This document shows, piece by piece, positions 7,140 through 63,843 of a stretch of DNA of 64,000 nucleotides (positions are counted from its first letter, which is position 1; every line of letters starts with the position of its first letter). Under the pieces are notes generated by a model. It searched no databases. It had not been told where the DNA came from and worked only from the letters and a program-made list of their open reading frames with translations. This DNA is from a virus (taxonomy: Duplodnaviria > Caudoviricetes), in the IMG/VR virus record IMGVR_UViG_3300028649_000004, positions 1 to 64,000 of that record. One strand, given 5' to 3'. Both the position numbers and the translations under genes were made by a program.

Positions 7140-7391
7140 TTCTGTTAATTTGTTTCTTACCACTATTTAACTATATCACATATATTTTCATTTGTAAATG
7201 ATTATTTCTATTAATTTATTAAGTTATTATAAAACATACTTTTTAACAGGTTTTTTGACTTTTACACCCTAGTGTTTAAGCCATTCTTGAAACCTACTTT
7301 TTATGTATTGGTGGTAAGTTTTTCATTTCTTACCACCTTTAAATCTAGTTTAACATATTTACTAACTATCTGTCAACATAATTCTGTTAAT

Positions 7392-7811
7392 TTATTGGTG
7401 TATTTTGTTTAATTGAAGTTTTTCTTTTAACATAAATATATCTTCTTCAAATTCTCTTAGTTTATGTGTAGTAAATTTAACTGTGTCAATTAAATCATTA
7501 TTTTCATCTTTTAATTTTACAATAGAAACTAATTCTGCTATATCAAAGCAATTTTGTTTTACTACTCTTTTTATTTCTTCAATATTTGATAACATTTCTT
7601 CATGTTCTATGACTTTATTATTCCTCTTTAAATTAATTACATCTATCCAATTTTTAGATGTTACTACTTCAAGTCTAGTTATATTTCTTTCAATATCATC
7701 AAATTGTCCATGTATGACATTAATTTTGTCATCTAACTTATTTATATCTGCTCTAATCTCATTTTGACCTTCTTTAAGTTCCATTAATATCTCTAAAATT
7801 TTATCATCCAT
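7392..7811 (-). CDS. Coiled-coil protein with internal repeats
   Basis: Heptad pattern, RBS present. Confidence 0.65.
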   Translation of the reverse strand: MDDKILEILMELKEGQNEIRADINKLDDKINVIHGQFDDIERNITRLEVVTSKNWIDVINLKRNNKVIEHEEMLSNIEEIKRVVKQNCFDIAELVSIVKLKDENNDLIDTVKFTTHKLREFEEDIFMLKEKLQLNKIHQ

Positions 7812-7853
7812 ATCAAATATCCATCCTTTACTTTATATTCTACATACAATAAT

Positions 7854-8231
7854 CTAAGAACATTTTATATATTCATTTCCTTTAAGTTCATATTCATGTT
7901 TCACCACCTTAAAATATGAACAATATTTATGCTTATATTTTTCTTTTAATTCAATTATATCACAATGTTCCTTTAATTGATTATATGTAGGATACCCTTC
8001 ACTGAAAGTATTATTTCTTTTATCATGCAATATATATTCTGTTTTATTACTTGGTTTATTTAATTTTTCTAATATTTCATTCAATGAATATTTGTTTTTA
8101 TCTTCACATTCTAAATGAATTATTTGCATATGAAAAGCCATTCTATCCATTGGACTTAATGACAAATACCATTCGGCAGTTAATAAATCATTATCTAGTT
8201 TATACTTTAATTCTTCTAATTCGCCATCCAT
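7854..8231 (-). CDS. Hypothetical protein
   Basis: ORF with RBS. Confidence 0.6.
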   Translation of the reverse strand: MDGELEELKYKLDNDLLTAEWYLSLSPMDRMAFHMQIIHLECEDKNKYSLNEILEKLNKPSNKTEYILHDKRNNTFSEGYPTYNQLKEHCDIIELKEKYKHKYCSYFKVVKHEYELKGNEYIKCS

Positions 8232-8383
8232 TATAATTCTACCTTTTTATAGAATATTTTGTATAATTCTGCAAGTGCTTTTTGTCTATTTTCTTCTAAT
8301 TGTTCTGGACTAACTTCCTTTTGAACATTAATAATTTTATATCCATTTTTAATTTCTACAGTTACTTTTTCCATAATTATCAC

Positions 8384-60268: not shown

Positions 60269-61905
60269 CTAAATCGAAGAATTTAAAGCTTTATTATTTA
60301 ATCGTCTAGTTTCTATTAATTCTCTTAAAAATTTTTGTTTAAAATCCATAAAACCTTTAGGATATTCTGAACATTCTACTTTCTCATTAAGAGTTATTTT
60401 TATATCATCAAATATAAAACAGATATCTGTGTACAATAGTTCCTTTCTGCTTACTAAAACTCTCAAAGCTTCTATAATATTTCCTGTGGATACACTTCTT
60501 TTAGTACATTTTCCATTTAAATATTCTTTTATAATACTTTTTGCATCCTCTATTAAATTAAAATCACCATATGATTTCCCATCTTCCCTATAATAAATTT
60601 CTAACATTTCAATCTCTCCTTTTAATTAATAATTGTTTTCAATTAGTTGATAAAATCAGATTTTTAAGCAGAAACTTAATTCTGCTATATTAATTCATAT
60701 ATTCATCACCAGTTAATTTTTTATCAACTTCACAATCAATTTTTATTTCCATAAATCCATACATTTCTATTAATTGTTTCTTTATATCGTTAGGATATGT
60801 TGCTTTTTGATGTTTTTTAGTTTTCCCATTATCTGCATTCATTTTTAAAGCATTTTCATACATATCACCTAATTGTTTTTGATTGAATTTCTTTTCATGT
60901 AATAAAATAACTTCATCTATTCCTCCACCATCGTTCCATTCACAGCCTTCACAATAAATATTAAATCTATAATTATACATTTAGCTTTACCTCCTATACC
61001 TATTATCAATTTATTATATTCTGTATGCTTTGTTTTATACGTCTTACAAATTAATTATTACTTTAAAGTTCCTATTTTACTTTCTCTTCAATTAACTTTT
61101 CTAATTCTTCTAAAGATTCTAATTTTGTATATTCATCATTAACAATCAATTCTTTTAAGTTTGTTGCTAATTTAAATTTTTTAGTTTCCATCAACAACTT
61201 TCTTAACTCATAATAAATATTATTAACTTTTTGAATGTACAACTTATGATTCTTTTCATCTTCAAAACTGAGTTCATAATTACTTAATGGATACCAGTTG
61301 GCAATTTCTTTTAACTTTTTACTAGCATTATCTAAATCTTTTAAAAGTGTTTCTTCTTTCTTTTCTATATATTTAGCTTTCTCCATTATTTTCTTCACCT
61401 TCTAACCTTTCTTTCATTTCATATAAAGCTCCTATTCTACCACATAAATTATCTATACCACTCCCCATATCTTGAACAACTCCAGATTCATTTGGTATAT
61501 AATCTTTCCCACTTTCTTTATAACTTTCTATTCGATTTAATTCGCTTTCCAATTCATTTTTTAACAATGTCATTTTTGATTTCAATTTATCTATAGAATT
61601 ATTAATTCTCATTTGACTATATCCTAGTGCTTTCATACTAATTCACTCCTCATTATTCTTTATTATAACATAAATTTTAATTTTCTAAACTCTTCCAAAT
61701 AAAAGATTTATTTTATAAGCCCTCGCTTATACCATTCTAAAACATTAAAAGATTTCTTTATATTTTCACAACTTGAATCTCCATGACTACAGATATTATT
61801 TTTTCTATTTGACGAGCAATCCTTATTATAACATTTTACTTTTCCATAAGTCTTATATTTGTATTCCTCATATTCTTGACATTCTTTACAACAACAATTA
61901 TTCAT
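60269..61905 (-). CDS. Five small hypothetical genes
   Basis: Co-oriented ORFs with RBSs. Confidence 0.6.
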
Positions 61906-61917
61906 TTTTAATCCCTC

Positions 61918-62835
61918 CTATAAATTTTCCATAACATTCATAACATCTTCATCATCCATTGTGATATAGATTTTGCTTGTATTAATGTTGTTATGTCCTA
62001 AAACTTTTGCCACCATTAATATATCCTTTGTCTTTTTATATACATTTGTACCGACTGTATGACGTGCTGTGTGTGTAACATATTTTTTGTCAGTAAGTTC
62101 TGCTTTTTCATACAAGTCTTTCATAATATTTTCTACTGATTTTTTTGTTATTCTCTTTTTAAGTCTACTAATAAATAAATATTGTTTTTCTTCTTCTGTG
62201 ACATTATCAACATTTCTATATTTCAAATAATCATTTATAGCTTCTATACATTGTTTATTTAAAAAAACACTATCTTCTTTATTGCCTTTTCTTATAACCA
62301 ATAATTTATTTACTTGTATATTATTTAATTTTATATTTGCAAGTTCAGATACTCTTATTCCAGTTTTGAATAGTAATGTTACAATACATTTATCCCTGTA
62401 GTAATTTAATTTGCCTTCAGTTAAGGAACTAAATATCTTTTCAACTTGTTCATCATTAAAAGCTATTGGAATCTTTTTACCTATTGTAATTTTTTTTAAT
62501 CCCTTTGCTATATCCTCTTTTATTATATTGTTTTCATACATATAACTAAAATAAGATTTCAATGTTGAAACTTTTCTAGCTCTAGCACATTCAGAATTTT
62601 TCTTTTGTTTAGTTTTAGTATAGCTAAGAAAATTATTAAGGTCATCTAAAATCAATGATTGTATAATTTTATTAGTTATTTTTTTTGCTTTTTTATATTC
62701 TTTTAAAAATTCATAGAATACATGTAAATCAGATTCATACCCAACAATCGTGTTCGGTGATTTATTATTTGTATGTAAATAATCTAAAAATTTAACTGCT
62801 GATTCAGGTAAATTAAATTTATTTTCCATTTCCAA
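61918..62835 (-). CDS. Xer-like tyrosine recombinase, apparently intact
   Basis: TGIRVSEL, RKGNK, HTARH, LGH, IY: complete catalytic set. Confidence 0.92.
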   Translation of the reverse strand: MEMENKFNLPESAVKFLDYLHTNNKSPNTIVGYESDLHVFYEFLKEYKKAKKITNKIIQSLILDDLNNFLSYTKTKQKKNSECARARKVSTLKSYFSYMYENNIIKEDIAKGLKKITIGKKIPIAFNDEQVEKIFSSLTEGKLNYYRDKCIVTLLFKTGIRVSELANIKLNNIQVNKLLVIRKGNKEDSVFLNKQCIEAINDYLKYRNVDNVTEEEKQYLFISRLKKRITKKSVENIMKDLYEKAELTDKKYVTHTARHTVGTNVYKKTKDILMVAKVLGHNNINTSKIYITMDDEDVMNVMENL

Positions 62836-62935
62836 TACTTCCTTTCTATTTCTTTTAATTTGTTTATATTCTAATTATATATTAAATTTATGCAGATTAC
62901 AAGAAAAATATTCCTATAATCTCCGAAAATTAACA

Positions 62936-63843
62936 CTAATTATTATAGTGTCTATTGGCTATTTCTAATAGAATTGATGGTATTACACATATTACACATG
63001 CCCTATCCCAACTGTCACCATAGCGAGGCAATAAAGCTATCTCATTTCTTATCTTTCTTATACGTGTATCTCCCATAAGACCTTCTTTGTTATACTCTAG
63101 TATATTATCATAGCATTCTTTAAGTTCTGGATCAGTAAGACCTTTTATTCTTTTTTCTAAATCATTCATTATTTTTTTACATCTCCCTTTTATATTTATC
63201 TATTGCGTCATAAAATTTCTTCCTAGCAAGATTAAGTAATTCATAATATGTCAATCCCAGTGCTTCTTCTTTAGTTGGAATTGGATTATTGATGTGATAA
63301 TGAAAAGTATGTACCTTTCCTGTTTTCATAACAACATTAAAATGTTTATAATCATATTCTGTTGGTGGCTTATTATTAAATCTAACTTCTACTATAACAT
63401 TTTTCATTTTTATTCCTCCATTTTCTTTAATTTATTTTATTACCATAAACCAATGTTTTTAACAACTTTTAATTTGATTTTGTAAAACTATTTCCACTGA
63501 CCAACTCATTACATTTTGGACACATATAATCACCATCATATTTATCACCAGTAATAGGTTCTATATCATTGGTTTTAAAATATTTAATAGTTGCTTTGTT
63601 TATTTCTTCAGCAGAACTAATTCCTTCACATTCTTCACATTTATAATTGTCTACTTTTATATTTTTAATTTCCTTCTGTATAACTTCAACGGCTGTCATC
63701 ATTCCTATTAATTTTGTTCGTTGTTCATTTGCTCTTTCTGATGTTATTTTATCTGATTTTTCCTGTTCAAATATTTCATCCTTCTTATTTAAATATTCAT
63801 TAACTATTATTTGGCTGATATCTTCTAATGTTTGTTTATTCAT
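62936..63843 (-). CDS. Three small hypothetical genes (62936-63169, 63177-63407, 63469-63843)
   Basis: Co-oriented ORFs. Confidence 0.6.

Follow-up and report, generated by a model that had tools for sequence, protein, structure and literature searches.

How phage genomes stay collinear despite the wholesale replacement of their accessory genes is an old open question. In the modular theory, homologous modules are exchanged while their order is kept, the linkers between them were proposed as plain homology, and convincing examples of such linkers are few. Shared boundary or linker sequences at module junctions are described as an old proposal (PMC6466182). The nearest described case is that of the PeSLs of T4-type phages, which are presented as elements of about 100 bp that combine a sigma-70 promoter with a terminator, are alike everywhere and recombine any-to-any to give mini-circles, and which have been proposed to direct modular shuffling to harmless intergenic places (PMC2839356, PMC4122927). 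Dispersed sites are also described for cluster A mycobacteriophages, whose genomes carry over 20 stoperators; these repressor sites occupy short intergenic spaces, often where a gene ends, and are characterized as asymmetric 13-mers with one consensus that are read by a monomer in an orientation tied to transcription (PMC9283540). Here we describe the sites of a dyad-symmetric motif, TAAAA-N6-TTTTA, in a stretch of 64,000 nucleotides from a phage of the Caudoviricetes (IMG/VR record IMGVR_UViG_3300028649_000004; hereafter the window), where linkers would be directly visible as dozens of 16-bp sites that keep their position and exact sequence amid almost unshared DNA. We tentatively propose that these sites are protein-recognised, individually addressed junctions at which modules would be swapped between like-addressed sites, a reading that may well hold but that we stop just short of calling probable. 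The original prediction, made from the sequence of the window, had suggested that the sites may form an integron-like array with a Xer/dif-type architecture, and its interpretation is partly supported.

The window is the first 64 kb of one 84,391-bp viral contig (G000) with a G+C content of 24.9%. Almost all of its open reading frames (ORFs; called as the longest frames, with a simple preference for a ribosome site) are on the minus strand, and the sites are therefore described on this coding strand. There are 15 exact copies of the motif in the window, compared with a mean of 2.93 (sd 1.73, largest 9) in 100 dinucleotide shuffles, and the spacing between the arms is strict: when it was varied from 0 to 14 bases, 15 copies were found at 6 and 1-6 at every other length. 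Intergenic DNA (97 segments, 10,742 nt) holds 14 copies where 500 dinucleotide shuffles give a mean of 0.72 and a largest value of 4, so that the enrichment passes an AT-matched check. One-mismatch copies in the intergenic DNA of the window number 22, against 10.3 +/- 3.0 in 200 shuffles (largest 20), and it follows that only around half of them should be genuine. The 14 exact copies of the original prediction were all confirmed at their coordinates, and a fifteenth, at 6489-6504, had been missed. Its 11 near copies comprise eight with one arm mismatch and three with two (32842, 38439 and 44894); nine of them have an identical-core partner at the collinear place in a related contig, G001, where several of the partners have perfect arms, which confirms these nine as sites, and those at 42491 and 44894 have none.

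The whole contig carries 25 exact copies, and related contigs, all of which are metagenomic, carry 32, 29, 34, 28 and 43, compared with 1-6 for a reversed control pattern; more distant relatives carry 5, 9 and 11. Exact and one-mismatch intergenic sites together amount to about 45 for 161 minus-strand ORFs. The motif was not enriched in a 4-Mb metagenome-assembled genome (MAG) of Clostridium (156 vs 138), nor in a second Clostridium MAG, G009 (241 vs 173), in which 20 among the matches listed fall on one phage-like contig. Because it is enriched in the related contigs and not in these two MAGs, the motif is a property of the phage family and not of the host. A host-factor regulon is ruled out by the same absence of enrichment.

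The conservation of the sites stands out against the DNA in which they lie. In the replication block, the proteins of G001 are 97-99% identical to those of the window (99% for the AAA_24 protein) and the DNA is about 93% identical, while outside it 17 of 161 minus-strand ORFs have a collinear G001 homologue of at least 50% identity and blastn finds scattered short blocks only. The region from 5 to 64 kb of the window and on to 84 kb is thus hyperplastic, with 144 of the 161 ORFs lacking such a homologue, and the sites are the conserved points among these non-collinear ORFs, as where differential ORFans meet. Twenty of the contig's 25 exact sites have a partner in G001 that is collinear, in the same order and identical in its 6-bp core; 13 of these partners match over the whole 16-mer (chance would give 1.06, and 1000 trials gave at most 5) and 7 differ by one left-arm change. 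In these 20 pairs, every core and right-arm position agrees in 20/20 and left-arm positions in 15-20/20, and agreement falls to 5-13/20 from the first base outside (-1 and +16). A second relative, G010, is collinear too, although most of its genes in this region, like those of G001, are unrelated to the genes of the window, and 19 sites with identical cores are common to G000, G001 and G010; this three-genome chain was matched on identical cores, so that its 100% core identity is by construction, and its three pairwise comparisons are non-independent.

The flanks tell a different story from the sites. Scored against unrelated flanks (which average 15.5 identities over 30 aligned columns, with a 99th percentile of 21), the 30-nt flanks in 57 pairwise comparisons were homologous on neither side in 47 cases, downstream only in 9, upstream only in 1 and on both sides in 0. 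The intervals between consecutive shared sites differ in length (e.g. 4234, 492 and 1425 nt), and their blastn coverage ranges from 0 to 0.57, mostly below 0.2. At collinear places, exact palindromes are retained in 16/17 cases in G001 and 13/17 in G010, sigma-70-like promoters in 1/7 and 1/7, terminators in 0/3 and 0/3, and other intergenic 16-mers in 147/649 and 82/649. The sites of the window, with their coding-strand cores, are the following.

6489..6504, minus strand: exact site, core GAATAA; collinear copies with this core in G001 (one arm mismatch) and G010 (exact)
7230..7245, minus strand: exact site, core AGTATG; identical 16-mer in G001 at 90985, one core difference in G010
14103..14118, minus strand: exact site, core GATGTC; common to G001 and G010, with three unrelated left flanks
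18353..18368, minus strand: exact site, core AATGTA; arms extend to 14/15 complementary, fold -9.7 kcal/mol, z -3.18; common to G001 and G010
21329..21344, minus strand: exact site, core TATTAG; core unchanged in G001 and G010, with a single arm mismatch in each
23278..23293, minus strand: near site (one arm mismatch), core TCTTGA; identical-core partners in G001 and G010
24569..24584, minus strand: exact site, core TGGAAA
25796..25811, minus strand: exact site, core ATTTAA; identical 16-mer in G001 and G010
27134..27149, minus strand: exact site, core TACTTC
29669..29684, minus strand: exact site, core GAGCCA; in four family genomes, left flanks unrelated from -1 and right flank homologous
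30516..30531, minus strand: degenerate site (two arm mismatches), core TCTATC; same core at the collinear place in G001 (one mismatch) and G010 (exact)
30782..30797, minus strand: near site (one mismatch), core ACTATA; exact sites with the same core in G001 and G010
31901..31916, minus strand: near site (one mismatch), core TAAATG; identical-core partner in G001
32842..32857, minus strand: degenerate site (two mismatches), core ATGTTA; identical-core partner in G001 only
33168..33183, minus strand: near site (one mismatch), core TATGGA; exact in G010
34875..34890, minus strand: near site (one mismatch), core AGTTAA; same core in G001 at 64006
37060..37075, minus strand: exact site, core TACTGA; both flanks homologous to G001
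38439..38454, minus strand: degenerate site (two mismatches), core GACGTG; exact sites with the same core in G001 and G010
41558..41573, minus strand: near site (one mismatch), core TTTGCA; exact in G001 and G010
42491..42506, minus strand: probable near site (one mismatch); no identical-core partner, an exact G010 site differing by one core base
43861..43876, minus strand: exact site, core TCTCGT; G001 and G010 yielded no partner
47205..47220, minus strand: exact site, core TGGCTA; 16-mer unchanged in five family genomes, whose five right flanks are unrelated
48921..48936, minus strand: near site (one mismatch), core GGTGAA; identical-core partner in G001
54183..54198, minus strand: exact site, core AAGTAA
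59412..59427, minus strand: near site (one mismatch), core TGTTAC; beside the helix-turn-helix (HTH) block, exact in G001 and G010
60651..60666, minus strand: exact site, core ATCTGA; also in G002
61700..61715, minus strand: exact site, core TAAATC; just downstream of a recombinase gene
63446..63461, minus strand: near site (one mismatch), core ACATTG; identical-core partner in G001

The edges of individual sites are sharp. A viral collection was scanned in full for three single addresses, which returned 81, 54 and at least 116 stretches, mostly chance matches in unrelated viruses, with 2-5 family members usable per address. At the 29669 address, the downstream flank is homologous in all four family genomes, while the four upstream flanks are unrelated and begin to differ at -1. 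The 47205 address is followed in five family genomes by five unrelated downstream flanks that start at +1, and the 14103 address, found in three genomes, has three upstream flanks and two downstream types. In G000, these three sites have 41-133 nt of upstream spacer, and breakpoints placed at random would rarely be predicted to land all on the edge of a site. Exact-match islands of at least 13 nt between G000 and G001 gave too much noise in DNA this rich in A+T and served only to spot orthologous near sites.

The cores show no consensus across sites, and none is duplicated within any of five genomes (0 vs 2.9 expected, P about 0.05), which bears out the original prediction of a different core each time. 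Their identity between genomes is best judged from two less biased views, namely the position profile of the 20 pairs and a collinear search that accepted any 16-mer with at most two differences, all positions counting equally. This search returned 49 pairs with 16 differences in the arms (490 positions) and 3 in the cores (294 positions; binomial P 0.058). With displaced windows as a control, 15/64 queries gained a chance partner, and nearly all real partners are identical. On these alignments, conservation of the core equals or exceeds that of the arms, which would be expected were core identity the property that counts. Moreover, with the DNA of the replication block only about 93% identical, the 16-mers are conserved far more strongly than coding DNA, their non-consensus centres included.

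The presence of conserved sites amid differing genes suggests that they are points of module exchange. Under this proposal, the dyad-symmetric 16-mer would be recognised by a protein, presumably as a dimer, and the 6-bp core of each site would be its address, unique per genome and kept by position in relatives. Site-directed recombination between co-infecting relatives would need matching cores, as in the overlap region of tyrosine recombinases, whose usual length includes 6 bp. Since unlike addresses within one genome could not recombine, gene order would be kept, and since like addresses in two genomes could, the DNA between two sites would become swappable; the process would be cassette exchange at equivalent positions and not capture of the integron type. 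A module would spread to other genomes only while both of its addresses were intact, which may be the reason for their conservation. Recombination at the sites, the reading of the arms by a protein and the nature of the enzyme are all inferred; recombination by core matching is favoured because cores are unique within genomes and identical between them, arms vary with the flank, and the edges are sharp. A bolder version, which we regard as doubtful, is that this jumbo Clostridium phage lineage practises natural cassette exchange with 40 or more heterospecific sites per genome that have the same arms and private 6-bp overlaps. If so, the modules would be selected, horizontally moving units with the addresses as their conserved ends, and an enzyme could swap any inter-site module without scrambling gene order.

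Several results weigh against the proposal of addressed junctions. Transitions between conserved and non-conserved genes are not enriched at the sites (6/23 vs 47/137, odds ratio 0.68, P 0.48), and exact sites lie at 1/23 transitions compared with 23/137 non-transitions. The idea that breakpoints between relatives fall at the sites thus stood at the nucleotide level, where shared sequence switches to unrelated sequence at the edge of the 16-mer, and found no enrichment at the gene level. Ends of blastn blocks lie mostly at ribosome-binding sites, stop codons or a AAATAAATTAAT box, two copies of which bound an insertion of about 400 nt in G001; with block ends mostly elsewhere and a null result for genes, much gene turnover uses other junctions. 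Only 5 bp per arm are conserved, which is short for the arm of a tyrosine recombinase, and protein comparison found no recombinase conserved among the genomes that share identical sites. In more distant relatives, whose helicase is 73-83% identical, cores are shared no more often than by chance. The sites show a polarity with transcription (A at core position 6, G at +19, terminators upstream, downstream flank conserved 9 vs 1) that fits regulation, and the gene at 23309-24529 has a 72% homologue in G010 without flanking sites. Sharp edges could also arise by the replacement of everything unselected around a strongly selected 16-mer, and recombination at the sites is deduced by comparing sequences.

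The genes that enter into the alternatives, assigned by Pfam, are listed here.

196-1236: primase, in the replication block at the low end of the window
1252-2649: DnaB-like helicase, in the replication block
3166-4176: AAA_24 protein (Sak4-like), in the replication block
16087-17745: tyrosine-recombinase-like gene, 552 aa
18419-21277: three C5 methyltransferases
32872-33177: protein with sigma-70 region 4 only, 90-101 aa
39519-40724: tyrosine-recombinase-like gene with an MrpR-type core-binding domain
53395-54141: PemK/MazF-like domain protein, 248 aa
54578-55729: tyrosine-recombinase-like gene with an MrpR-type core-binding domain
57870-58079, opposite strand: Cro/C1-type HTH gene
58404-58715, opposite strand: Cro/C1-type HTH gene
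61918-62835, minus strand: XerC/D-like tyrosine recombinase (PF00589 at 2.6e-33, a generic Phage_integrase match given as context only)

Pooling five genomes gave 148 sites: 114 have co-directional ORFs on either side, 15 are within an ORF call and 19 are flanked by calls on opposite strands. In the window, 12 of the 15 exact copies touch no minus-strand ORF of at least 40 aa and 3 overlap an ORF end only, in agreement with the placement between genes or on stop codons that had been predicted. The left-arm TAA is the upstream stop codon in 26 of 124 rows (the 114 co-directional sites and 10 others, five genomes), and the median distance is 14 nt for the preceding stop and 40 nt for the following start. 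When sites are oriented by transcription, the fixed part of each arm is 5 bp plus one A or T (positions -1 and +16), followed by weak preferences only: C at -4 upstream (35/114), and G at +19 (61/114) and A at +21 (78/114) downstream. The core is A at position 6 in 75/114 and T at position 1 in only 41/114.

This anatomy introduces the main rival of the junction proposal, a dimeric-regulator operator, which the original prediction had named as its alternative. In this reading, the palindromes would be dispersed operator or insulator sites at the 5' border of gene units, where a phage dimeric DNA-binding protein (e.g. one of the HTH proteins encoded at 58404-58715 and 57870-58079) silences, insulates or times transcription through the accessory region, and they would be held by selection while neighbouring genes turn over by unrelated recombination. 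We consider it possible without expecting it to be correct. Its parallels are the mycobacteriophage stoperators, the C1 operators of P1 and the KorB sites of RK2. It accommodates the short intergenic spaces between co-directional genes (114/148 sites) and the frequent position on a stop codon, 12-45 nt before the next start, as well as the sites of the early region that stand upstream of sigma-70-like promoters. It also fits the relation to canonical terminators, which lie within 120 nt upstream of the site in 10/114 cases and downstream in 0/114, the polarity of the flanks with transcription, the conserved flank being mostly downstream (9 vs 1), and the lack of enrichment of gene-level breakpoints at the sites. 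Moreover, the opposite-strand HTH genes have a recombinase and a PemK-like gene as neighbours, an arrangement like that of a lysogeny or plasmid-maintenance block, and the stoperators, as described, likewise exceed 20 sites in short intergenic spaces (PMC9283540).

However, the operator reading meets several difficulties. A strong promoter lies within 100 nt of only 14/114 sites, and where a promoter follows, the gap varies from 6 to 49 nt with no preferred value. No exact site occurs in the HTH block itself, that is, between 54199 and 60650, and one near site does (59412); the earlier statement that sites are absent between the replication genes and from the repressor block is accordingly true of exact copies and fails for this one-mismatch copy beside the HTH genes. 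The spacer of an operator should drift, yet there are 3 core changes and 16 arm changes, and the sites outlast the promoters and terminators that they would serve (16/17 vs 1/7 and 0/3). Neither HTH protein was found by blastp in all motif-rich genomes, and unrelated DNA abutting both edges is left unexplained. The junction and operator readings are not exclusive, since a bound regulatory site could double as a crossover point.

A closer relation to transcription signals would be expected if the palindrome were part of a core promoter read by a phage-specific transcription factor or polymerase, which we think quite improbable. Textbook sigma-70-like promoters and ordinary terminators (15 vs 1.5 expected) are both present at 64-84 kb of the contig. 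The most enriched upstream word other than the ribosome-binding site is a AAATAAATTAAT(AGAA) box, which occurs in 175-183 of 1013 upstream regions (about 42 expected) and is located 17-34 nt before start codons or just upstream of the -35 element of sigma-70-like promoters; examples in the window are at 6469-6480, 7210-7221, 34854-34865 and 39464-39475. The box is replaced by TAAAATATTAAA in G004 and TAAATAGTATTGT in G003, and it is therefore probably a lineage-specific promoter-type signal, whereas the arms of the palindrome are the same in all lineages. In favor of a promoter element, the sites stand upstream of genes and are kept across lineages, and a subset lies 7-8 nt before AAATAAATTAAT or, in G004, 4-6 nt before TAAAATATTAAA. 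Yet the distance from site to start codon is continuous, from 2 to 45 nt and beyond, the ribosome-binding site falls inside the core at two sites, the box occurs at +17 to +27 of the palindrome in only about 17/114 cases, five related genomes give no match to Sigma70_r2 (region 2), and a site-specific conserved core is unneeded. A fixed promoter element is ruled out by the variable offsets and the low counts of strong promoters (14/114) and boxes (about 17/114). The palindrome is a separate element at the upstream border of gene units, and is neither a terminator nor a fixed part of a promoter.

The AAATAAATTAAT box also bears on an explanation in which the sites would be primarily regulatory or structural 16-mers, with a PeSL-like role as linkers for a by-product. 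Exchange would then proceed by general short-homology recombination, for instance through the Sak4-like AAA_24 protein at 3166-4176, and the 16-mers would act as linkers only as the sole stretches common to otherwise unrelated modules. The 99% identity of the AAA_24 protein between G000 and G001 agrees with this, and the presence of the box at homology breakpoints and at both ends of the G001 insertion indicates that short repeats serve as junctions; the PeSLs are likewise described as conserved intergenic regulatory cassettes proposed to mediate modular shuffling (PMC2839356, PMC4122927). We nevertheless find this explanation unlikely, as sixteen bases are very short for homologous exchange and the common arms, exact 6-bp spacing, dyad symmetry and unchanged cores would be left unexplained.

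Palindromes near stop codons might also be intrinsic terminators or RNA hairpins that act in the transcript, an explanation that we find hardly credible. RNA folding of the 15 sites placed the motif hairpin in the minimum-energy fold in 6/15; 3/15 sites fold significantly better than shuffles (z below -2), whereas z lies above -0.6 in 9/15. The stem of the motif has five A-U pairs only, its flanks show no covariation, and ordinary G+C-containing terminators (15 vs 1.5 in 20 kb) occur separately, upstream of sites. The original prediction that the arms often extend as TTCCAA/TTGGAA is only partly borne out, by the preferences for C at -4 and G at +19; the flanks of a site are no more complementary to one another than randomly re-paired flanks (2.74 vs 2.70 +/- 0.11 matches in 8). 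Its near-perfect 15-mer arms at 18343-18378 do match at 14/15 positions. A stable hairpin or terminator is ruled out by the weak folds, the uncorrelated flanks and the separate terminators upstream. The conserved object is therefore 5+5 bases at a fixed distance, as for a symmetric protein contact rather than a hairpin, and the sites are likely, on this reading of their sequence, to be bound by a protein.

A conserved non-coding element of about 45 nt (AAGAATGGCT..ACTGGGTTGTA..) lies just upstream of five of the palindromes, at about 7246-7290, 14119-14160, 18369-18412, 21345-21388 and 48937-48980, and also downstream of 29669. It is found at such places in G001 and G002 as well and has no Rfam match.

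A protein that reads the arms would be expected to be shared where the arms are invariant. Tyrosine recombinase genes (PF00589) are present in all five genomes searched. The XerC/D-like gene at 61918-62835, which had been proposed as the recombinase acting at the sites, is 39-42% identical to its syntenic counterparts in genomes with identical sites (25% in G013), and for that reason it is a poor candidate for the arm-reading protein. It stands at the same place, beside the same address, in four genomes (the window, G001, G010 and G012), and from its sequence it looks like a case of swapped integrase alleles. The MrpR-like genes are 32-47% identical among genomes that share sites, and the 552-aa recombinase (16087-17745) has no homologue in G001. 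By blastp, only 8 proteins are common to G001-G004, namely the replication genes and a recombinase of 23-30% identity, and none of the ten proteins conserved between G000 and G001 belongs to a DNA-binding Pfam family. The 470-aa gene at 55722-57134 travels with MrpR-type recombinase-like genes in G001, G002 and G004.

The original prediction of an integron-like array, in which the recombinase at 61918-62835 would capture circular cassettes at the sites, is already largely refuted by the absence of duplicated cores, and we regard it as very unlikely. Integron attC sites are folded imperfect palindromes of 57-141 bp with conserved core sites, one per cassette, and insertion duplicates site halves. 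Like them, the phage sites follow co-oriented accessory genes at the 3' end and often overlap the stop codon; they differ in having no 57-141 bp fold, no one-per-cassette rule and no duplicated cores. Tyrosine recombinase genes are present, and the units said to be bracketed by sites are indeed so: the three genes within 18353-21344 are C5 methyltransferases by Pfam, the sigma fragment at 32872-33177 is sigma-70 region 4 only, and 23309-24529 also lies between sites. The last gene, earlier labelled a nucleotidyltransferase, has no Pfam match at E 0.001 or better; its homologues in three other viral contigs are 72%, 41% and 33% identical, and the 72% homologue, in G010, is unflanked by the motif. 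Core-dependent insertion would leave the same core on both sides of a cassette, yet zero cores are duplicated; the sites are 16 bp long and unlike attC, about 45 of them serve 161 ORFs, and the recombinase is only 39-42% identical where the sites are identical. As an identification, attC is ruled out, given that the sites are 16-mers without extended complementarity and attC has paired inner and outer core sites.

The relatives, found through the helicase, are viral contigs of 115-194 kb, and the record of the window itself is 34% complete according to CheckV; the full phage genome is therefore probably well over 200 kb. Cellular matches are confined to contigs in MAGs labelled Clostridium sp., and G001 encodes DNA polymerase, topoisomerase II, ligase, ribonucleotide reductase and RecJ. 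Megablast of the first 20 kb against a phage collection gave zero matches, and tblastn of the DnaB-like protein gave distant matches only, the best being Clostridium phage Amboise at 32%, with plasmid matches of at most 25% identity. Rfam at gathering thresholds and ARAGORN each returned 0 matches or transfer RNAs in the window. Both HTH genes, within 57278-59322, oppose an otherwise one-strand genome near a recombinase, and together with the PemK/MazF-like protein they hint at a temperate or plasmid-like lifestyle.

Other observations concern individual loci. The 385-396-aa gene at 5192-6382 is without a counterpart at the collinear place in G001, and its paralogs or relatives elsewhere contain a DUF559 endonuclease-like domain. 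The DUF559-like proteins encoded here and at 9268-10848 are, with the four tyrosine-recombinase-like and two HTH proteins, candidates for binding the 16-mer. Its first five codons and its upstream region are common to a different G001 gene, which places the apparent replacement junction inside the reading frame, just past the start. The contig from 64 to 84 kb resembles an early-type region, with canonical terminators alternating with strong TTGACA-17-TATAAT promoters and very small ORFs. A separate perfect palindrome, TAAGTCATGACTTA, lies at about 82,550-82,571 of the contig, is kept between G000 and G001, and occurs twice in G001 (3839 and 5042).

If the sites are recombination points, they would represent a new way of organising viral gene flow and could supply engineering with orthogonal sites ready for use. 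Should their role be regulatory, they would still be the most stable elements of a hyperplastic region and part of a new genome-wide control system in the poorly known large Clostridium phages. A limited search of the literature on module boundary sequences and on intergenic repeats of jumbo Clostridium phages found no such motif and no addressed linkers, which leaves their absence from it unproven.

Among known systems, the stoperators as described share with these sites their number, above 20 across the genome, and their location in short intergenic spaces, while the phage sites differ in being dyad-symmetric, in having a variable and position-conserved core, and in a weak polarity of the flanks. 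In a stoperator system, the site also serves as operator of the early promoter under repressor control; around the HTH genes of the window (54199-60650) there is one near site, at 59412, and no exact one. The boundary sequences of the modular theory were not presented as dyad sites forming one family, with arms in common and a core of their own. Tyrosine recombinase sites (dif, lox and FRT) consist of inverted arms around a 6-bp centre that is free in sequence but must match between partners, and cores that are unique within genomes and identical between orthologous sites fit such a partner-matched centre. The Xer/dif likeness that had been proposed thus stands for the layout, with TAAAA and TTTTA exactly 6 bp apart where dif-type sites have inverted arms and a 6-8 bp centre. 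It does not extend to number, with 25 exact sites in 84 kb and 28-43 in relatives instead of one resolution site per replicon, and no conserved cognate recombinase was found. The arms of dif-type sites are about 11 bp long with sequence conservation; here 5 bp plus one A or T are fixed, followed by the preferences for C at -4 and G at +19.

A closer functional analogy may be that of heterospecific lox or FRT pairs, which have the same arms and different spacers, do not cross-react, and are used for engineered recombinase-mediated cassette exchange. In both cases, the DNA between two unlike sites would be swapped for the DNA between the same two sites elsewhere; the engineered pairs are a laboratory design, whereas exchange at the phage sites is deduced from sequence. 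We know of no natural array of heterospecific sites. Compared with the PeSLs as described, the present sites are 16 bp long, contain neither promoter nor terminator, and each have a unique, position-conserved core. They share with the PeSLs the character of short conserved intergenic elements, in a hyperplastic and ORFan-rich region, at the borders of genes that differ between close relatives.

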